Assembly (NCBI GenBank): GCA_038046465.1
Contig: JBBSWB010000041.1
Location: forward strand, 1 to 58,865
DNA length: 58,865 nt
Direction of reading: 5' to 3'
Source of the DNA: Nanobdellota archaeon
GTDB taxonomy: Archaea > Nanobdellota > Nanobdellia > Woesearchaeales > GW2011-AR9
Below are positions 38,368 to 58,859 of this stretch, piece after piece. How positions within the stretch are numbered: position 1 is the stretch's first letter; each line of letters begins with the position of its first letter. Under the pieces are notes generated by a model. It was not told the DNA's origin. It was given only the letters and a program-made list of their open reading frames with translations, and ran no database searches. Made by a program: the position numbers and the translations under genes.

Positions 38368-38486
38368 GCCCCAGTAGCTTAGTGGCTATAGCACCTGACT
38401 TGTAGCCAACTATCTGCTATGTTTCCAACGAAATATAAGCATAGTAAGATATCAGGAGATCGGGAGTTCAACTCTCCCCTGGGGCT
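38368..38486 (+). tRNA. tRNA-Thr (anticodon TGT) with a canonical 46-nt intron at 37/38 (38405..38450)
   Basis: GCCCCAG TA GCTT AGTGGCTA TAGC A CCTGA CTTGTA [46 nt] A TCAGG AGATC GGGAG TTCAACT CTCCC CTGGGGC T. Central BHB helix CTTG/TAAG with 3-nt bulges. Confidence 0.9.
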
Positions 38487-44605: not shown

Positions 44606-44726
44606 AAAAGCCACCCGCCTGGCCAAGATGAGCGCGAGAGAATGTTTATTTTAATCAAAAATTAATTCCTATCCCTTTAAATTTTAATTGCAAGGATAGG
44701 TCGAGCGCTCGGCCAGGGTGGCTTTT
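44606..44726 (+). repeat. Structured hairpin repeat, copy C (family A/B/C)
   Basis: Stems are AAAAGCCACCC/GGGTGGCTTTT, CCTGGCC/GGCCAGG, GAGCGC/GCGCTC and CCTATCC/GGATAGG. Homologous to the reverse complement of 25997..26118. Confidence 0.7.
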
Positions 44727-44819
44727 GCGACCAGCTTAGACAGACTAATTCTACCTAAATATTTATAAAACCGATTAGGATTTTAATGACGTTAGTGCCA
44801 GTTGTTCACTCACGTTCAC

Positions 44820-44964
44820 GCCAGCGTCGCATAATTCGGTACTTTGCATAAGCAAAGGTTTACGCGAAGCGAAAAATTGCGCAGGTCTTGAAAACCTGTT
44901 CCTTCGGGAATTCTCGGTTCAAAGCCAGCAATCTAAATTGCTGATGAAATTCCGAGCGCTGGCG
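44820..44964 (+). tRNA. tRNA-Ser (anticodon TGA) with two introns: about 35 nt in the D-loop (about 44842..44876) and 27 nt in the T-loop at 59/60 (44924..44950)
   Basis: GCCAGCG TC GCA TAATTCGGTA [35] T TGC G CAGGT CTTGAAA ACCTG, long variable arm TTCC-TTCG-GGAA, then CTCGG TTCAAA [27] T CCGAG CGCTGGC G. Perfect hBHBh' at the T-loop junction. Confidence 0.8.
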
Positions 44965-44984
44965 CTTTTTATTTTCTAAAAGAA

Positions 44985-45800: not shown

Positions 45801-46898
45801 GTGAAAAAAATGAAAGAAAAAATGAAATTATTAGAACCAATTGAACCAATGCTGGCAGTTTATGCCGGCGGAGAAAATGTATATGAAGATATATTAAACC
45901 GACACGGCCAGCTTACTTTTGCTGAACTTAAATACGACGGCTACCGCTTGCAGCTGCATAAGAAAGGAAGCACGGTTAAAGGATATACTAGAAATCTTAA
46001 TGATGTGCCTTTGGATATTTATCCTGAACTGTCCTCTTCGTTAAGCAACTTGCCAAACTGTATCTTAGATTGTGAACTTAATGGAGGTATTGGACATACT
46101 GGATTTAAGACGGTAAAAAACCGATTTAGGAGTAAGAAAACTGACTTAACTGCTTACGAGAAGAAAGCAGACTTGAGTAAACCTGTAGAATTAAGAGTTT
46201 TTGACGTTCTTTACTACGGAAAAAAATGGTTGATGGAACTTCCTTTACTTGAACGAAGGAATTATACTGAAAGGATCGAAGAGTCCAAGATTAGGCCTGG
46301 ACAGCAGTGGAGAGTAAATAGTGCAGAAACCTTAGAAGCTTTATTTGAAACGCTGATAGAAAGCAAGCATGAAGGGCTGGTTTGCAAAGACCCTTCTTCA
46401 TTATATTTGCCAGGAGATAAAAGCGGTAAATGGACTAAGATCAAAAAATTTGAAACTTTAGATTTAGTGGTGTTGGGAGTTTACCTCAACAATGAAGAGA
46501 TAAGCCAAATCCTTTGCGGCGCTTACAATGAAGAATCAAAATGTTTTGAAACGCTGGCAAAAATAAATGCCAAACGGGAAGGAACTAATCAAGTATTAGC
46601 TGATTTGCTTACAGGCAAGTTTCAAGCAGAAATACCTGCATCGGTAATCATTCACCCTAAGGCTAAAAGCGAAGATCTGCCCCAGCTTTATGTTGAACCG
46701 AGAGTATCAGTAGTTGTAGAAATAAAAGCTATGAACCTTAATTATGGCAAGAATGAATATAGCTGCGGCTTTGACGGAAACAAATCTTATTCGCTGCGGA
46801 TAGCCTGGGCAAAGCAGATTCGAGAAGACAAAAAACCAAGTCAAGCCACGACTACAACAACGGTGGCAGAATTGTATAAAATTCAGGAGGGATTATAA
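45801..46898 (+). CDS. ATP-dependent DNA ligase, minimal form (adenylation plus OB domains, no N-terminal DNA-binding domain)
   Basis: Motif I ELKYDGYR (KxDG), with motifs EGLV.K and KIK further on. At 365 aa it is well below the roughly 550-600 aa typical of archaeal replicative ligases (recalled from general knowledge). Confidence 0.85.
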   Translation: MKKMKEKMKLLEPIEPMLAVYAGGENVYEDILNRHGQLTFAELKYDGYRLQLHKKGSTVKGYTRNLNDVPLDIYPELSSSLSNLPNCILDCELNGGIGHTGFKTVKNRFRSKKTDLTAYEKKADLSKPVELRVFDVLYYGKKWLMELPLLERRNYTERIEESKIRPGQQWRVNSAETLEALFETLIESKHEGLVCKDPSSLYLPGDKSGKWTKIKKFETLDLVVLGVYLNNEEISQILCGAYNEESKCFETLAKINAKREGTNQVLADLLTGKFQAEIPASVIIHPKAKSEDLPQLYVEPRVSVVVEIKAMNLNYGKNEYSCGFDGNKSYSLRIAWAKQIREDKKPSQATTTTTVAELYKIQEGL

Positions 46899-48143: not shown

Positions 48144-48523
48144 ATGAAAAGGTGTTAAAAATGAAAAACAAAGGCGCATTTTGTGAAACTTATGGTATCA
48201 CTATAGAAAATTGTATCCTCGAATATTTGTTAGAAAATCAGGATTTAGATATTGCTATCGGCGATATGGCGAAAGAACTAGATGTAAGCAAACCAAAAGC
48301 ATACGAAGTAATCAAAGAGTTTGAAGAAAAGGAATATATTATTAAATCTAGAGTTGTTGGAAAAACCCAACTGTACAAATTGAATAAAACAAATATTAGA
48401 GTAAAAATCTTTTTGAGAAACTTTGATGAATGTTTGCAGCTAGTGATTGAAGAACATAGTAATAAAAGTTCTACCATCAGTGCTCCAATGAGTATCGGAG
48501 TGGCATCGGCAAGATCATTTTGA
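48140..48523 (+). CDS. Winged-helix DNA-binding protein (127 aa)
   Basis: IGDMAKELDVSKPKAYEVIKEFEEKEYIIKSRVVGKTQLYKLN is a wHTH pattern. Confidence 0.55.
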   Translation: MNEKVLKMKNKGAFCETYGITIENCILEYLLENQDLDIAIGDMAKELDVSKPKAYEVIKEFEEKEYIIKSRVVGKTQLYKLNKTNIRVKIFLRNFDECLQLVIEEHSNKSSTISAPMSIGVASARSF

Positions 48524-48530
48524 TTTCACA

Positions 48531-48548
48531 TTCACGCCAGCGTCGCAT
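48531..48548 (+). pseudogene. Orphan fragment of the tRNA-Ser 5' end (5-nt leader plus first 13 nt)
   Basis: TTCAC GCCAGCGTCGCAT is identical to 44815-44832 and 48595-48612, but no tRNA body follows. Confidence 0.6.
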
Positions 48549-48599
48549 CCACAGAGAAATAATTTCCCTGGGCGCGACTCAGCATTCACTCACGTTCAC

Positions 48600-48749
48600 G
48601 CCAGCGTCGCATAATCCGGTATTGCGGCAGTCTCGAACAGATCTTTACAATCGAAAGAAAACTGCTCCCTCTGGGATTCTCGGTTCAAACGAGAAACTGC
48701 GTTTCTTACCCAGAAAAACGCAGTTTTTCTGAATGTCCGAGCGCTGGCG
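48600..48749 (+). tRNA. tRNA-Ser (anticodon CGA) with two introns: 22 nt in the anticodon loop (about 48638..48659) and 46 nt in the T-loop at 59/60 (48690..48735)
   Basis: GCCAGCG TC GCA TAATCCGGTAT TGC G GCAGT CTCGAA [22] A ACTGC, variable arm TCCC-TCT-GGGA, then CTCGG TTCAAA [46] T CCGAG CGCTGGC G. A T-run follows. Confidence 0.8.
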
Positions 48750-48789
48750 CTTTTTATTTTTAAAAAAAAGCTAACCTTTCAAAATAAAG

Positions 48790-53131: not shown

Positions 53132-53794
53132 ATGATAAAAGCAGTGCTATTTGATTTGGATAATACTTTAATAGATTTTATGGTGATGAAAAGACGGTGC
53201 ACTGAAGCAGCCGTTTCGGCGATGATTGATGCTGGTTTAGGAATGAGTAAGAAAAAAGCGTATACTTTAATGTTTGAGCTGTATGAACGGCACGGCATTG
53301 AAGACAGCACCATTTATCAGAAATTTCTGCAGAAATATGTTCACAAAGTTGATTATAAAATATTATCTGCCGGAGTAGTGGCCTATAGAAAGGTTCGGGC
53401 GGCGCAGTTGGTTCCCTATCCGCAGGTGCGGGCGACGTTAATTGCTTTGAAAAGTAAAGGGTTAAAATTAGGAGTAGTTTCCGATGCGCCTAAGATGCAG
53501 GCCTGGTTAAGATTAACCGAAATGAGTTTAGTAGAATTCTTTGATGTGGTGTTGGGCTTTGAAGATACCGGCGAATTAAAACCATCTTCAGCTCCGTTTA
53601 AGAAAGCGTTGTTACGAATGAAAGTTAAAGCTTCTGAAGTAGTGTTTATTGGTGACAATCCGCATCGGGATATTGTTGGCGCAAAGAAAGTAGGCATGAA
53701 GACGGTGTTGGCTAAGTATGGCGGATGTAAGAGTAAGAGCGGAGCGGATTGGGAGATTAAGGGAATTGGAGAGTTATTGAAGATAGTGAAATAA
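53132..53794 (+). CDS. HAD-superfamily hydrolase (subfamily IA-like)
   Basis: DLDNTL motif I, S/T motif II (VVSDAP), and K...GDN..D motifs III/IV. Confidence 0.85.
   Translation: MIKAVLFDLDNTLIDFMVMKRRCTEAAVSAMIDAGLGMSKKKAYTLMFELYERHGIEDSTIYQKFLQKYVHKVDYKILSAGVVAYRKVRAAQLVPYPQVRATLIALKSKGLKLGVVSDAPKMQAWLRLTEMSLVEFFDVVLGFEDTGELKPSSAPFKKALLRMKVKASEVVFIGDNPHRDIVGAKKVGMKTVLAKYGGCKSKSGADWEIKGIGELLKIVK
53746..53790 (+). repeat. Direct repeat, copy 1 (functional 3' end of the HAD gene)
   Basis: GGATTGGGAGATTAAGGGAATTGGAGAGTTATTGAAGATAGTGAA recurs, decayed, at 54836-54886. Confidence 0.8.
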
Positions 53795-53797
53795 AAT

Positions 53798-54271
53798 CTA
53801 TTGTAATCTCTTTACAGTTTTAGAACGATATTCCTTAATTTTGTCTTCAGTTAGGTTTTCTGTAAAATTATTAATCTCAATAATAAACTCCTCTGCAATA
53901 TGTATTGATTTCATTACTTCTTCTTTGGTAATAGCAAAGTCAATGTAATACTGTTTATCAACCCTTTCGCTTTTTGCTTTAGAAATCACCGCATTATCCA
54001 AATTAAAAATTTCTTTAAGCAGTATTATGGCGGCAGTGTGGTTTTCGCATTTGATTCCGCTGCGGAAGAGCAGAGATAAAAGCGCGTGATACATAGAGTA
54101 ATAAGCTAAAGCAACAGAATCCTTTAGATTGCCAATCTTTAGAAGAGCCTTGGCTGAAGAAAGTGATTCCTGTGCGCGCTGTAGATAAGCTATCCTCATT
54201 TCTTCGCTTGGTTCAACTACCTGCAGCTTCTTTTCCTTGGCTAATTTATGCAAAAAATCTGTTTTTCTCAT
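53798..54271 (-). CDS. HEPN-domain protein
   Basis: Helical, 157 aa, with a YYSMYHA...ENHTAAI pattern. It overlaps the upstream NTase by 26 nt. Confidence 0.65.
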   Translation of the reverse strand: MRKTDFLHKLAKEKKLQVVEPSEEMRIAYLQRAQESLSSAKALLKIGNLKDSVALAYYSMYHALLSLLFRSGIKCENHTAAIILLKEIFNLDNAVISKAKSERVDKQYYIDFAITKEEVMKSIHIAEEFIIEINNFTENLTEDKIKEYRSKTVKRLQ

Positions 54272-54803
54272 AATATACTTCTATCCCTTTGATGAGGAGA
54301 TGGTTCTTTTCAATTTCTTTAATCAAAAGATTGCTTGGATCGTAAAGGCCGATTTTTACGCTGAGTTTGGAATCAAGCAGCTCTACTTCTTCTTTGAGTT
54401 TTTTATCTTTGGTTTCTAAGTAAAGATCTATATCGCTGTCTTTATGCGCAGTTCCTTTGGCATAAGAGCCAAAGATTAGGGCCAAAGTAATTTTAGGATT
54501 TTTTCTGATGTTTTCAGTAATTAAACGCAACCGAGGATATTTTTGCAGCGCTTCTTTAAGTTTGTGCAACTCTGCAATATAAGCATATTGTTTTGCCTCT
54601 AGGGTTTTTTTAAGATGAAAAACTTTGTTTTTACCTTCCATTTGGAAATCTGCAGCATTTTCTTGATATAATTCCTTGGTTTTTCTGGCAATAGTGGTCT
54701 GGTTGGTGTTGAGTTCTTTGGCCAGCCCTCTCACGTGGTTCTCTTTTTTTAACAGCGCTTCCACAATTTGTATTTTGTAATCTTTTTGTGACATATGTAA
54801 CAT
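54246..54803 (-). CDS. wHTH-fused minimal nucleotidyltransferase (MNT-type)
   Basis: IFGSYAKGTAHKDSDIDLYLE NTase signature, with an N-terminal wHTH. Confidence 0.75.
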   Translation of the reverse strand: MLHMSQKDYKIQIVEALLKKENHVRGLAKELNTNQTTIARKTKELYQENAADFQMEGKNKVFHLKKTLEAKQYAYIAELHKLKEALQKYPRLRLITENIRKNPKITLALIFGSYAKGTAHKDSDIDLYLETKDKKLKEEVELLDSKLSVKIGLYDPSNLLIKEIEKNHLLIKGIEVYYEKNRFFA

Positions 54804-54835: not shown

Positions 54836-54886
54836 GGATTGGCTGGGAGATTAAGGGAGTTGTGAAGAGTTATTGAAGATAGTGAA
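54836..54886 (+). repeat. Direct repeat, copy 2 (decayed relic of the HAD gene 3' end)
   Basis: GGATTGGCTGGGAGATTAAGGGAGTTGTGAAGAGTTATTGAAGATAGTGAAGAG. Indels break the HAD reading frame. Confidence 0.8.
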
Positions 54887-54945
54887 GAGTTAAGTAGGCA
54901 TACCTTTATAAATATCTATACCTTTTAGACATCAGTTGATATAAA

Positions 54946-55641: not shown

Positions 55642-56187
55642 ATGCTTCAATCTTTGGAAGAAAAACAGGAATTATTGCAAAAGTCAGAAGTTAGCCTGTG
55701 GATTGACCACTATGATGATATTTTTTCTGACTTTGATCCCCGCCCTTATTCCCAGCGCGGCCTTTCCGATGACTTTTTGATTGAAGCTAAAAAATTTATT
55801 AAAGAAAAGGCTTCGGGAAGCTTTGAATTAATTTTTTTAGTACCTGAACTGATGAGAAAACCTGAATCTGAAGGTATTATCAAGAAACGCCTGCGTGAGC
55901 ATTTTAAAAAACACCACCTGTTATTAAAACATGACATGGTTAAAATAAAAAAGAAAGGGATTGCTTTAGCTGCGGTGGGTATGCTGCTGATGTTTGCTGC
56001 TTATTTGGTAACTACGGTTGAACAGAATATGCTGATGAATTTAATTTTTATAATTCTTGAACCGAGCGGATGGTTTCTGGCTTTTATAGGGATGGAGCAT
56101 ATCTTCTATGAAACTAAAGGGAAAACACCTGATTTAGAATTCTACACCAAGATGAGTAGATGCGAGATTAAGTTCAGGAGTTATTGA
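55642..56187 (+). CDS. Membrane protein (two C-terminal TM helices)
   Basis: 181 aa with hydrophobic segments GIALAAVGMLLMFAAYLV and LIFIILEPSGWFLAFIGM. Confidence 0.55.
   Translation: MLQSLEEKQELLQKSEVSLWIDHYDDIFSDFDPRPYSQRGLSDDFLIEAKKFIKEKASGSFELIFLVPELMRKPESEGIIKKRLREHFKKHHLLLKHDMVKIKKKGIALAAVGMLLMFAAYLVTTVEQNMLMNLIFIILEPSGWFLAFIGMEHIFYETKGKTPDLEFYTKMSRCEIKFRSY
56121..56187 (+). repeat. Direct repeat, copy 1 (3' end of membrane protein gene)
   Basis: GAAAACACC.GATTTAGA...GATGAGTAGATGCGAGATTAAGTTCAGGAGTTATTGA recurs at 58061-58120 with a 7-nt indel. Confidence 0.85.
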
Positions 56188-56218
56188 TTTGAAAAGAAGG
56201 TTTGTATTTATAAGAGGT

Positions 56219-57058
56219 TTATTTCTTTTCTATTTTCTTCTTTTTAGTTAAATCCAAGTAATTTTCAGGAGACACTATTTTTATTCCAAAAGTGGTTTCC
56301 GCGTCTTTCCTGGCTCGTCCGGCTACTTCACCGCCTTCTTTTGCTGCATCTAAGTTTTCTGTAAATCCTTGTGCATCCTTCTTGCGTGTAGCCTCAGTAC
56401 TGAGCCTTTCTCCTAACATAGAAAAAATGAGCTCCAAATCATTCATATGGTCGCGTAGATTTTGATTCTTAAACTTTGGATCTAAACCTTTAATTTCTTT
56501 ATGCTCTTTTATAGGTATTCCGAAAGTTGCTTTACTAATTTCATTGGTAAGAATAGCAAATTCTCGCTGTTCTTCAACGCCTCTTTTTTTCCATTCATCA
56601 GTAAGCTCTTGCCGAATGGCAATTCCTCTAAGCCGTTTGTCAATCCAATCTTTAGGATAGCCTTTGAGTTCATAATATCCTTTGGCTCGGTCTTGGGCTA
56701 ATTCTGGATTTTCTATTTCTTGAATTCGTTCGTAGCCTACTTGGGCTAACCATTGCTTAAATGGTTCAGCTTTCTTAGAAGGGATGGATTGAATTATTCT
56801 AAACATATTTTTGGTGTTAGCACAATCTGTAAGATAGGATTTACCATCAGAAGCAAGTAATTTCAGTTGGTTACAATTTGTAACCACCTCGCTTCCTTCC
56901 TCAGTGAGGCGGTATTTAAGTACCTTCCAATAATTTCTAGGGTTATCACTATCACTTAATACTCTAATTACATCAACTACTGAAAACCACCACTCTTCGT
57001 TGCGCCAAACCCTGCGGATGCTTTTTCCTTCAAAAACAGCTAATGAATTATTTTCCAT
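56219..57058 (-). CDS. Bro-N domain / DinD-like (DNA-damage-inducible protein D-like) protein
   Basis: N-terminal FEGKSIRRVWRNEEWWFSVVDVIRVL is a Bro-N pattern common in viruses and prophages. Confidence 0.65.
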   Translation of the reverse strand: MENNSLAVFEGKSIRRVWRNEEWWFSVVDVIRVLSDSDNPRNYWKVLKYRLTEEGSEVVTNCNQLKLLASDGKSYLTDCANTKNMFRIIQSIPSKKAEPFKQWLAQVGYERIQEIENPELAQDRAKGYYELKGYPKDWIDKRLRGIAIRQELTDEWKKRGVEEQREFAILTNEISKATFGIPIKEHKEIKGLDPKFKNQNLRDHMNDLELIFSMLGERLSTEATRKKDAQGFTENLDAAKEGGEVAGRARKDAETTFGIKIVSPENYLDLTKKKKIEKK

Positions 57059-57168
57059 GTTATTTCTGCAACTTAGAAGCTATATAAACCTTACGTGCAC
57101 CTGTCCAGTGGGTGTGTGGTTTAGATTAGAACATAATGTTTCTGTTGGCATAATGGTTATTAAGATAA

Positions 57169-57399
57169 TTGATGTGCTCAGTAATTATGAAGAAAACACG
57201 AGAAAAATATCTTTCTTTGCCAAAAAAAGTAGAAATAAAACCAGAAACATTAGGTTTGCCGGCTAATTTGCGTGAAATTTTTGGAAGTAAAAACTGGGAT
57301 GAACTAAGTAAAAAGAACCAAACTTATTTTATTTTTGGGCAATTGCTTAAGGAAGGTAATTTCATTTTGACTGGAGAAGGGAAAGTGGTGAGAATTTGA
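57169..57399 (+). CDS. Hypothetical small protein (76 aa)
   Basis: Intact ORF overlapping the next ORF by 4 nt. Confidence 0.4.
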   Translation: MMCSVIMKKTREKYLSLPKKVEIKPETLGLPANLREIFGSKNWDELSKKNQTYFIFGQLLKEGNFILTGEGKVVRI

Positions 57400-58019
57400 G
57401 CATATGCTGGATTAATCATTTTCCGGATGAAGCGCCATTGATTCTGATTAACGATACTGGGCTTTATTTTGAAAAAATATTGGCATATGAAAAAAAGTTT
57501 ATAGAAAAAATATTTAAACTAGATTTAGAAAAAGATATCATAAAATATCCTGCTTACGAAGAAGCTTTGAAAATAATTCCAGAGATAATCAAAACTAAAA
57601 AGATGGTTATTTTAGGCCCAACCCAACATAAAGAAATTGGGTTTTTCTCTACTTATTTCCCAATAGTTAAATTCCCGGTTGTAATGGACTTTATTATTAA
57701 AGAGTTTGTTCATGACCAAATGGCAACTTATGATGAAGAAAAAATATTAGCTGCTGCAGAAAAATCAGATCGATACAAATGGCTGACTTTATTTGTTTTT
57801 GGAAGAATACATCAAGAGCTTAAGTTAAATCCTTCTTATTTATACACTAATGGTTCAATTGAAACGGTTTGGCAATATTATGATTTAAACGGATTGTCAT
57901 TGAAAGAAACAAAAAAATATCTTTTGTTAGCCAAAGAATTCGATAACAAAATATTTTTGGAGTTGGCAGCCAGCGAACTGCTGGGAAAGGAAACTCCTGC
58001 AGTTAAACTAATAAGATAA
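57396..58019 (+). CDS. Hypothetical protein (207 aa, TTG start)
   Basis: Intact ORF coupled to the upstream gene. No motif recognised. Confidence 0.45.
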   Translation: MSICWINHFPDEAPLILINDTGLYFEKILAYEKKFIEKIFKLDLEKDIIKYPAYEEALKIIPEIIKTKKMVILGPTQHKEIGFFSTYFPIVKFPVVMDFIIKEFVHDQMATYDEEKILAAAEKSDRYKWLTLFVFGRIHQELKLNPSYLYTNGSIETVWQYYDLNGLSLKETKKYLLLAKEFDNKIFLELAASELLGKETPAVKLIR

Positions 58020-58020
58020 T

Positions 58021-58058
58021 TTTATACAATAATTGTACCTATTTATACAATAATTGTA
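58021..58058. repeat. Tandem 17-mer TTTATACAATAATTGTA x2 (21-nt period), each containing the near-palindrome TACAATAATTGTA
   Basis: Read directly from the sequence, immediately left of direct-repeat copy 2. Confidence 0.8.
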
Positions 58059-58060
58059 TA

Positions 58061-58120
58061 GAAAACACCCGATTTAGAGTCGAGATGAGTAGATGCGAGA
58101 TTAAGTTCAGGAGTTATTGA
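58061..58120 (+). repeat. Direct repeat, copy 2 (relic of the membrane protein gene 3' end)
   Basis: See 56121..56187. Confidence 0.85.
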
Positions 58121-58228
58121 GTGAACCTGGAAGTAAACCAGATTGACCAGTCTAAAAAGAGTACGATAATAGGTGTGCGGGAGCTCTAATCTTCCAAAAC
58201 TTAATTTCCTCATCGCAACATTTATAAA

Positions 58229-58247
58229 CGTTACCAAATTGGTAACG
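58229..58247. promoter_or_regulatory. Perfect palindrome CGTTACCAA-A-TTGGTAACG abutting a TATA box (TTTATAAA 58221-58228)
   Basis: Read directly from the sequence, just upstream of the third HTH-NTase gene. Confidence 0.5.
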
Positions 58248-58259
58248 ATTGTTATTAAA

Positions 58260-58859
58260 ATGATGCCATTAATCAAAACGGGATATTGGAAAATTATGCA
58301 GCTCTTTTATACTAATAAGGTTACAAAGATGCATCTTAGGGAGATTTCCAGGAAAGCCAAGCTTCATGCGCCTAGCACGACCACTTTTTTAAAATCCCTG
58401 GAAAAAGATGGGGTATTGAAGTCAGAAAAAGATGGGAATCAGAAAAAATACTTCTTAAAACTAAATTATAAAACTTATGCTGTCTTTCAGCTCTTTGACT
58501 TAGAAAAACTTAATGCTCTCCCTAACATACGTAAGAATGCAATAAAATATTTCCTTGATTACCTCAAAGAAAAGCCTTTAATTGCTTTTGTTTTTGGTTC
58601 AACTGCAAAAGGAACCTTTAAAGAAGATTCCGATATAGATATCTTTATAATAACTAACTCTAAAATTAATACTGAAGAAGCTGAGAAGCATGCCGAAGCA
58701 TTGACTGGGATAAGGATCAGCACCTTCCAGATGAGGTTAGAACCTTTTTTGAAAGAAATAAAACTTAAAGAAGATCCAGTTATCCAGTCTGCCATAGCTT
58801 CCGGCTATCCGGTGCTGAATAATTTATATTATTACGAGATACTTTACAATGGACCTTAA
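58260..58859 (+). CDS. wHTH-fused minimal nucleotidyltransferase (third MNT-type gene)
   Basis: VFGSTAKGTFKEDSDIDIFIIT signature. The ATG at 58260 or 58296 is preferred over the track start at 58173, which would run through the promoter and palindrome. An overlapping ATG at 58850 opens a further ORF cut by the window edge, possibly the HEPN partner. Confidence 0.7.
   Translation: MMPLIKTGYWKIMQLFYTNKVTKMHLREISRKAKLHAPSTTTFLKSLEKDGVLKSEKDGNQKKYFLKLNYKTYAVFQLFDLEKLNALPNIRKNAIKYFLDYLKEKPLIAFVFGSTAKGTFKEDSDIDIFIITNSKINTEEAEKHAEALTGIRISTFQMRLEPFLKEIKLKEDPVIQSAIASGYPVLNNLYYYEILYNGP

Follow-up and report, generated by a model that had tools for sequence, protein, structure and literature searches.

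Gene-end duplications flank small, integrase-less defence-type cassettes in a hypervariable island of a DPANN archaeon

Campbell-type circles, translocatable units in the style of the insertion sequence (IS) IS26 and homology-facilitated illegitimate recombination all use one stretch of homology and produce an insert that is flanked by its duplication. In Streptococcus, the cis-mobilisable elements (CIMEs) of the ICESt type and decayed islands consist of DNA flanked by attachment (att) sites, carry no integrase of their own and form tandem accretions, and the 'minimal mobile elements' of Neisseria are hotspots flanked by core genes whose contents are swapped by double crossover with no duplication left. 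DPANN archaea have genomes of about 1 Mb and depend on other cells, and how they gain and shuffle genes is little described, as far as we know or could find by literature search. Integration of archaeal elements into the 3'-distal parts of genes that encode proteins, with replacement of the stop codon, is documented, and crenarchaeal att sites are reported to measure 29-69 bp (PMC6563490). Here we analyse a contig of 58,865 nucleotides (nt) from a DPANN archaeon of Hainich groundwater (JBBSWB010000041.1, hereafter the window), in which a block of 1.9 kb containing a Bro-N/DinD-like gene and two small open reading frames (ORFs), o76 and o207, lies directly behind a conserved membrane-protein gene and between two copies of the 3' end of that gene.

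The two repeat copies (S3 on the left, S4 on the right; Table 1) match exactly over 38 nt (56150-56187 = 58083-58120), and the 29 nt preceding this stretch contain three substitutions and one gap of 7 nt, in agreement with an earlier note on this DNA that had described them as near-identical apart from a 7-nt indel. All four differences fall within the first 29 of 67 nt, a clustering that is suggestive rather than strong (p ~0.035), and the frame-breaking gap among them is what would be expected of an element-borne, non-coding copy. Given that the C-terminus of the membrane protein (...CEIxFxSY followed by the stop) is kept across the family in more than 100 homologues, the gene end in the window is native. 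When the window and a 612-nt extension were compared with themselves by sensitive self-BLAST, only three sets of short direct repeats at distances below 10 kb reached significance (E < ~1e-5), namely S3/S4 (E 2e-13), a pair at the end of a HAD hydrolase gene and a pair resembling non-coding RNA (ncRNA) at 44.8/48.6 kb; a weaker third copy of the HAD end was also seen. The same cassette architecture is present in at least five independent contigs from different assemblers, including a metagenome-assembled genome (MAG) at NCBI, and is thus genuine and not an assembly artefact. Logan contigs end inside the repeat, probably because its 38-nt exact stretch exceeds the word size of the assembler.

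Related loci reveal where the additional DNA lies (labels L001 to L323 denote the compared DPANN loci, of which L001 extends the window at its right). In L002, L003 and L004, whose membrane protein is 85% identical, the membrane-protein gene is directly followed by the orthologous gene for a winged helix-turn-helix nucleotidyltransferase (wHTH-NTase) and by a HEPN gene, and the stretch behind S4 in the window (58121-58260) shows homology to what comes after the membrane-gene stop in L002. As such, S4 occupies the old position of the gene end and everything from S3 through 58060 has been added. Judged from these alignments, the 1.9-kb block is a genuine insertion, as the earlier note had suspected, with its right-hand copy in ancestral context. 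On the left, the first ~22-35 nt past the membrane-gene stop are common to the window, L005 and L006, after which the latter two continue into a different minus-strand gene; the homology of L005 extends to 56209 and ends abruptly. An identical sequence is also found on the contigs Hain_H41/H43 (ENA ERZ1292625 and others) and in the NCBI MAG GCA_964357055.1. We looked for variant arrangements within the population through exact-protein look-ups, and a single arrangement was returned on every contig with the same HAD (14), membrane protein (5) or NT3, the NTase behind S4 (5), which indicates fixation of the block in the population sampled; nothing pointed to present mobility. The polymorphism that had been proposed as a check is present between related lineages but not within the sampled population, and the block is now internally scrambled and probably no longer mobile.

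A second cassette, for which the earlier note had already claimed the same architecture, is inserted at the end of the HAD gene (cassette A, between S1 and S2), and both its repeats and an empty-site relative, L242, bear this out. The NTase of cassette A matches PF18765/PF01909 (pol-beta fold) and its neighbour the HEPN family PF05168; the pair is PDC-M05A-like and, by domains and adjacency, is predicted to be an NTase-HEPN pair of the MNT/HEPN type. In L242, where HAD is 90% identical at the amino acid (aa) level, the gene order is Bro-N (minus strand), HAD and membrane gene, the gap between the latter two is 37 nt, and neither the HEPN/NTase cassette nor the pair of o103 and a RelE-like gene is present. 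The HAD tail of L242 reads KIVKS-stop, which is the reading of S2, whereas the functional HAD of the window ends in KIVK-stop. The tail of the relative matches S2, and the remnant therefore holds the ancestral tail and the working HAD gene an element-borne one; a single reciprocal crossover with DNA bearing its own version of the gene end would yield just such an attL/attR mosaic. The identical stretch is on the 3' side in each cassette (20 nt in A, 38 nt in S3/S4), and the 5' side of the remnant contains frame-breaking indels.

Further traces of the HAD end are found nearby. In L002 (5847-5960), about 75 nt past the HAD stop, in which CAGATTATAATCG stands twice in tandem (with GATTATAATC as its palindromic core), precede a degenerate remnant of the HAD end, with the flank GGATATGG in common with S2 of the window, and the region has the look of a scar left by a cassette since lost. 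In L001 (13375-13478, ~59016-59119 in window numbering), one or two degenerate stubs of the HAD 3' end, GGATTGGGAGATTAAGGAGTTGTTAAATAA and CGATTGGGAATTAAATAA, come after NT3 and a truncated partner ORF; a third HAD-like stub, S5, corresponds to L001 13448-13478, just past the window end, and the array of gene-end stubs thus continues beyond the window. Several independent assemblies stop between 58865 and 59477.

The footprint recurs in other lineages. About ten further repeat-flanked blocks were detected in other DPANN contigs, at the 5' and 3' ends of several genes (seven repeat pairs are listed in Table 1). Beyond those of L002, L245-L250 and L259, a survey of the surroundings of HAD at 80 species-level DPANN loci (1.1 Mb), in which the first and last 120 nt of every gene were compared with the 10 kb flanking it, added L261, L283 and L306, from unrelated DPANN MAGs, and L311, with L277 and L323 as possible events. 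The earlier note would have given up its proposal had there been neither polymorphism nor further examples; the arrangement is polymorphic between related lineages and the additional DPANN blocks exist. Two other parts of that proposal lack support. Insertion is not aimed at gene 3' ends specifically, as at least four events duplicate a promoter and 5' end, and nothing calls for an undescribed mechanism, given that repeat lengths (20-105 nt), crossover positions, repeat sequences and block sizes (0.7-4.4 kb) differ, that no cargo gene is common to all, and that no recombinase was seen. A search for a motif common to the repeats of all events was likewise fruitless. The 3.3-kb block of L002 contains the membrane gene, NTase, HEPN, o82 and a frameshifted Bro-N gene, and the 4.3-kb block of L259 contains HAD, two Hjc-like resolvase genes, DUF2779 and others. 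Some blocks bear a foreign allele of the gene end: the HAD remnant of L245-L250 continues after its 29 nt into a divergent, in-frame alternative C-terminus (DWEVVDVKGIVGIIISR-stop against KADFEMADIKNLLKIVE-stop), and the stub ORF of L259 has a different, homologous but divergent N-terminus. Such divergent alleles beside perfect identity show that the source of the incoming DNA was a different but related genome, and for these events simple duplication in place followed by decay is ruled out. Duplicated tRNAs in L282 and L298 were set aside, as they do no more than flank a gene for class-I lysyl-tRNA synthetase and represent a different phenomenon.

Table 1. Features of the two cassettes in the window and repeat pairs of comparable events in other DPANN loci (positions in the numbering of the window or of the locus named)
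Feature	Position	Strand	Description
S1, left repeat of cassette A	53746..53794	+	functional HAD hydrolase 3' end, ends KIVK-stop
Cassette A	53798..54803	-	HEPN (157 aa) + wHTH-NTase (185 aa) pair
S2, right repeat of cassette A	54836..54893	+	HAD 3'-end remnant; 3' part in frame, ...ELLKIVKS-stop
Membrane-protein gene (target gene)	55642..56187	+	181 aa, conserved in DPANN, 1331 homologues
S3, left repeat, attL-like	56121..56187	+	functional gene end: last 22 codons + stop, 67 nt
Left cassette flank	56188..56218	.	TTTGAAAAGAAGGTTTGTATTTAT...; flank shared by L005/L006, other gene downstream
Bro-N/DinD-like protein	56219..57058	-	279 aa, PADLOC defence candidate PDC-S13
Bro-N upstream (promoter) region	57059..57125	.	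hairpin 57094-57118; abuts HAD promoter in L242, L002
o76	57169..57399	+	displaced C-terminal module of the rare family of o207
o207	57396..58019	+	207 aa; N-terminal ~200 residues of rare family, ~230-250 aa
Tandem 17-mer pair TTTATACAATAATTGTA	58021..58058	.	copies 58021-58037, 58042-58058; 21-nt period
S4, right repeat, attR-like	58061..58120	+	60 nt, non-functional gene-end remnant; 5' 22 nt diverged
Ancestral intergenic DNA past membrane gene	58121..58238	.	NTase promoter + palindrome GTTACCAAATTGGTAAC; homologous in L002
NT3, wHTH-NTase	58239..58859	+	PDC-M05A-like; ancestral downstream neighbour of membrane gene
L002			60 nt, 91.7%, HAD promoter + first 48 nt; flanks 3.3-kb block
L245-L250 (HAD 70%)			29 nt perfect, HAD 3' region; flanks wHTH-NTase
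L245-L250			32 nt, HAD promoter/5' end; flanks Bro-N + Fic
L259	9733-9837, 14151-14255		105 nt, 100%, 5' coding part of HhH-GPD glycosylase gene; flanks 4.3 kb
L261	12033-13752		47-nt 3'-end duplication around wHTH-NTase + two further ORFs
L306	14040-15629		101-nt HSP20 promoter/5' duplication around unknown 215-aa ORF
L283	2558-5580		64-nt intergenic repeat around wHTH-Fic + wHTH-NTase

The Bro-N protein of the 1.9-kb block matches Pfam PF02498 (E 2e-13), phrog_15286 over its full length (E 4e-95) and the PADLOC profile PDLC04920 of PDC-S13 at residues 1-275 (E 5e-121). Many IMG/VR viral contigs encode proteins that are 44-62% identical to it, and the family is common in phage contigs. Its match to the NCBIfam equivalog of Escherichia coli DinD is weak (23.8 bits against a cutoff of 242), and it is thus not an equivalog of DinD. 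With Bro-N resembling PDC-S13 and the wHTH-NTase/HEPN pair resembling PDC-M05, the cargo is predicted to be of a defence or toxin-antitoxin (TA) kind. The 5' part and upstream region of Bro-N (56990-57125) abut the HAD promoter (window 53104 onward) in L242 and L002/L244, at 82-85% nucleotide identity; in L006 a Bro-N gene lies upstream of the membrane gene, and in the more distant lineage L245-L250 Bro-N and Fic lie upstream of HAD. Given the orthologous Bro-N upstream of HAD in relatives, the Bro-N gene of the window is an old local resident that moved past HAD and the membrane gene, and the cargo was in part reshuffled from within the neighbourhood rather than imported whole. The hairpin CGTGCACCTGTCCAGTGGGTGTGTG upstream of Bro-N (57094-57118) is kept in L242 and L006 despite a different neighbouring gene there. 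In L002 (4164-5085) the Bro-N/DinD-like gene is split into ORFs of 188 aa and 122 aa by a frameshift or pseudogenisation, and L244, from another sample, has the same split.

The remaining two genes of the block, which had been described as coupled orphans, overlap by 4 nt, and o207 is no strict orphan. An exhaustive HMMER search with o207 returned 23 remote relatives of ~230-250 aa (best identity 49%), and all aligned relatives have a C-terminal module of ~45 residues that is absent from o207. Residues 34-76 of o76 align with profile columns 205-249, exactly the part that o207 lacks (hhalign p 0.0013). On these alignments, o76 and o207 are two parts of a single rare gene whose order has been swapped, with the C-terminal piece upstream, so that the interior of the cassette has itself been rearranged. 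A single-sequence AlphaFold (AF2) model of o207 was unusable (predicted local distance difference test, pLDDT, 38).

Directly inside the right repeat, each 17-mer TTTATACAATAATTGTA consists of a TATA-like box followed by a 13-nt palindrome, and the exact palindromic core has no other occurrence in the window. The two copies can pair as a hairpin (single-stranded DNA z -3.3/-4.0). The core closely resembles the palindrome TTACAATAATTATAA ahead of the orthologous NTase gene in L002, and comparable AT-rich palindromes mark the right end both of cassette A and of the scar in L002. As such, the 17-mers are candidate promoter or operator elements, possibly bound by a wHTH-NTase; a role as a general recombination site is unlikely because nothing like them occurs at the other events. 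An apparent repeat between the 17-mer region and the region upstream of o76 (score 16, p ~0.01 against shuffles) was discarded as background, since better-scoring matches occur elsewhere in the window.

The wider setting of the cassettes is an island at the edge of a conserved region. Homologues of the window proteins are annotated as Woesearchaeota, Nanoarchaeota or Diapherotrites. The left 44 kb contain the archaeal core genes FtsZ, EF-1alpha, EF-2, NDK, GlmS, PGK, proteasome and FttA, and the end of FttA (44601) forms the border to a variable island with three wHTH-NTase genes and their HEPN-type partners, a RelE/ParE-like pair, the Bro-N gene and several orphans, among which two conserved genes are interspersed (HAD hydrolase, 53132..53794, and the small membrane protein). 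The window, L002, L005, L006, L242 and L245 each differ at the same gene ends, and mobility genes are lacking. By its gene content, the setting qualifies as a hypervariable island of genes resembling defence and TA systems (wHTH-NTase/HEPN, RelE/ParE-like, Fic, PDC-S13) around a few conserved genes. In the core region, a tRNA of 119 nt at 38368-38486 (Rfam 57 bits), evidently intron-containing, was unreported by ARAGORN, and a long inverted repeat without an Rfam match, GCCACCCGCCTGGCC ... GGCCAGGGTGGC at 44611-44728, marks the boundary directly after FttA.

The ncRNA-like element of ~170 nt is present in two copies (44805-44975 and 48585-48760), in which the 5' 37 nt are 97% identical, the 3' 25 nt 100% identical and the middles divergent. 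Both have a closing stem CGCCAGCG/CGCUGGCG and a T-run (fold z -3.3 and -3.9), match nothing in Rfam and were found in this population only; a third fragment with the 5' part alone (48521-48557) lies 64 nt before the second copy. The copies flank a 3.6-kb block that encodes a TrmB-like regulator, a short ATP-dependent ligase, an HD-domain protein and a wHTH protein, and the pair may represent the footprint of gene-end duplication on an RNA gene. The ligase (45801-46898, 365 aa) has the adenylation and OB domains only (dnl1 profile 162-527) and is without the N-terminal DNA-binding domain.

How could such blocks have been inserted? No integrase, transposase or Cas1 was found in the 59-kb window or in and beside the blocks of the other events, and no recombinase domain is present in the three cassette ORFs or elsewhere in the window. 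With the polarity of insertion, the mosaic repeats, their recurrence and this lack of recombinase genes nearby as observations, we lean, if without great confidence, towards a Campbell-type single-crossover insertion through general homologous recombination at a borrowed copy of a gene end, which is favoured by the variety of positions, lengths and genes involved and by the absence of recombinase genes. The resident membrane-protein gene would have recombined, in one reciprocal crossover, with a ~60-70-nt copy of its own 3' end on incoming DNA, which was probably a circle and may have originated in a related genome or as a rearranged copy of this same island. After this crossover, the gene would have a complete end (S3) and run on into element DNA, while the partial copy of the element would be fused to the original tail (S4) and stranded beside the NTase gene. 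The catalyst would be the general homologous-recombination machinery acting on short homology rather than a dedicated site-specific integrase, and the same process may have been repeated at both ends of the few conserved genes in the island. The gene would stay intact because the insert supplies a replacement tail in 3' events, or a promoter and start in 5' events, and gene ends would be used because the homology between otherwise unrelated versions of the island stops there.

Several observations weigh against this reading. The inspection for recombinases covered 59 kb of a genome of ~1 Mb, and among contigs of the same population there was no circular form, empty site or other polymorphism. 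The motif GAGATTAAG-N5-11-GAGTTATTGA is found in every one of the four repeats that flank the two cassettes, and the frame in which it is read differs between HAD and the membrane gene (the S3 version being GAGATTAAG-N5-GAGTTATTGA); within the window the bipartite pattern is confined to these copies, as is exact GAGTTATTGA, and in an a-priori test the similarity between the HAD end and the membrane-gene end ranks 4th-8th of 1431 gene-end pairs (top 0.3-0.6%). Such a shared motif hints at a sequence-specific recombinase or at repeated cycles of integration and excision. In addition, the element-borne arms have frame-breaking indels beside a perfect core, which is typical of a long-lived att site and not of a fresh donor copy, and 38-105 nt of perfect identity beside strong divergence needs gene conversion or a pre-existing hybrid site under plain homologous recombination. 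Imperfect versions of the motif occur in the empty-site relatives, and the repeats of the events in other loci are without it. An exact search for it in metagenome and genome contig collections in which this lineage is absent gave only scattered, chance-like single matches in unrelated taxa, and a search of the same collections with the membrane protein gave no match.

These points bear on the main rival explanation, in which the block is a remnant or cis-mobilisable derivative of an integrative element whose site-specific (tyrosine) recombinase acted in trans or was lost, deletions having left the addictive defence/TA cargo. The attL/attR-like mosaic repeats of 40-67 nt are inside the crenarchaeal att range (PMC6563490), and the bipartite motif common to both cassettes, the decayed arms next to a perfect core and the L002 scar with its remnant, which suggests cassette loss by deletion, all fit. 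We nevertheless hold this explanation to be rather unlikely, as no integrase is present in the window, in any cassette or beside the roughly ten comparable events; the use of 5' and 3' ends of several genes, with varied crossovers and no common sequence, would demand a large variety of integrases from genomes of very small size; no inverted-repeat core is present in the repeats; and the Bro-N cargo is a resident gene that was relocated and not imported element DNA. A copy of the repeat core in inverted orientation at the 3' end of o207 (57992-58009, 15/18 nt) was considered and dismissed, being no better than ~30 inverted pairs in the same 2 kb. Still more doubtful, in our view, is a dedicated integrase-free pathway of DPANN archaea, in which small circles with a gene-end mimic would be inserted by an unrecognised host factor or by recombination at unusually short homology, and in which GAGATTAAG...GAGTTATTGA and the 17-mers would be functional recognition elements in this lineage.

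Insertion could also be dispensed with altogether, if the island was duplicated locally in tandem and redundant copies were then lost, leaving the stubs S2, S4 and S5 and an apparent relocation of Bro-N. The gene orders resemble a circular permutation (Bro-N, HAD, membrane gene in L242; membrane gene, NTase, HEPN, further genes, Bro-N, HAD in L002), there is a third HAD-like stub beyond the window end, and duplication followed by deletion would give a permuted o76/o207. However, it is the functional HAD copy and not the stub that has the altered tail, the S3/S4 differences are clustered and not spread along the stub, HEPN2/NT2 and o76/o207 are without a second copy nearby, and the stubs of L245 and L259 combine a strongly divergent allele with 29-105 nt of perfect identity, which decay within a single genome cannot yield. 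We consider this origin of the block quite improbable, although duplication and deletion may have had a share in the wider reshuffling. Very improbable indeed, taken together, are an array of integron-like cassettes, the insertion of a transposon or casposon and an assembly artefact. Directly oriented sites S1 to S5 do divide successive small cassettes, and integrons have been reported in DPANN-type archaeal MAGs (PMC9668308), but the repeats are copies of the coding ends of their target genes and have no hairpin potential of the attC kind (z ~0), and no IntI was found in the window or its 612-nt extension, with the array possibly continuing past the contig end. No attC-like or dif-like structure was found in the repeats, and these regions fold no better than shuffled sequences (z +0.7 to -1.2). 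No terminal inverted repeats were found and duplications of 43-67 nt are far longer than target-site duplications, which argues against a transposon, and the same structure was assembled independently at least five times with different assemblers, which argues against an artefact.

The footprint described here is repeatable: a gene end present in duplicate, in some cases as a foreign allele, marks the insertion of a defence/TA cassette beside a conserved gene without a visible mobility gene, and could serve as a simple genome-wide marker of recent gene flow and of the turnover of defence islands in uncultured archaea. It raises the question of whether single crossovers at short homologies are alone sufficient to build such islands. 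If instead a specific recombinase were responsible, this would represent a new integration system for the DPANN superphylum.

The type of insertion is itself already known, and what is new is the finding of att-like, integrase-less cassettes in a DPANN defence island. As in the integrated mobile genetic elements (iMGEs) of Thaumarchaeota (PMC6563490), direct repeats of a gene end surround the insert, the gene stays intact with a tail or stop from the element and relatives have empty sites, and the arrays seen here may likewise arise by re-use of a site. Unlike iMGEs, the blocks here have no integrase, measure only 0.7-4.4 kb, occupy 5' ends as well, vary in crossovers and sequences, and hold partly relocated resident cargo. 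Integron cassettes, those of archaeal integrons (PMC9668308) among them, are similar in that small TA/defence cassettes, many with a promoter, form an array of direct orientation, but the sites here copy neighbouring genes and come with neither IntI nor attC structure. CIMEs share the att-like flanking repeats, the lack of recombination genes and the tandem accretion, whereas our repeats are not one conserved site and no cognate integrase-bearing element was identified in the 59 kb of the genome covered. Campbell-type and IS26-style insertions leave the same duplication of a single homology stretch around the insert, although here, unlike in the IS26 style, the homology is a host gene end of 20-105 nt and not an IS, and the intermediates are inferred only. 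The 'minimal mobile elements' of Neisseria likewise place different cassettes, often with defence/TA cargo and without mobility genes, between the same conserved genes; in contrast to their mode of exchange, the single crossover that we propose leaves behind a second copy of the gene end, in some cases a foreign allele, by which the insertion can be recognised.

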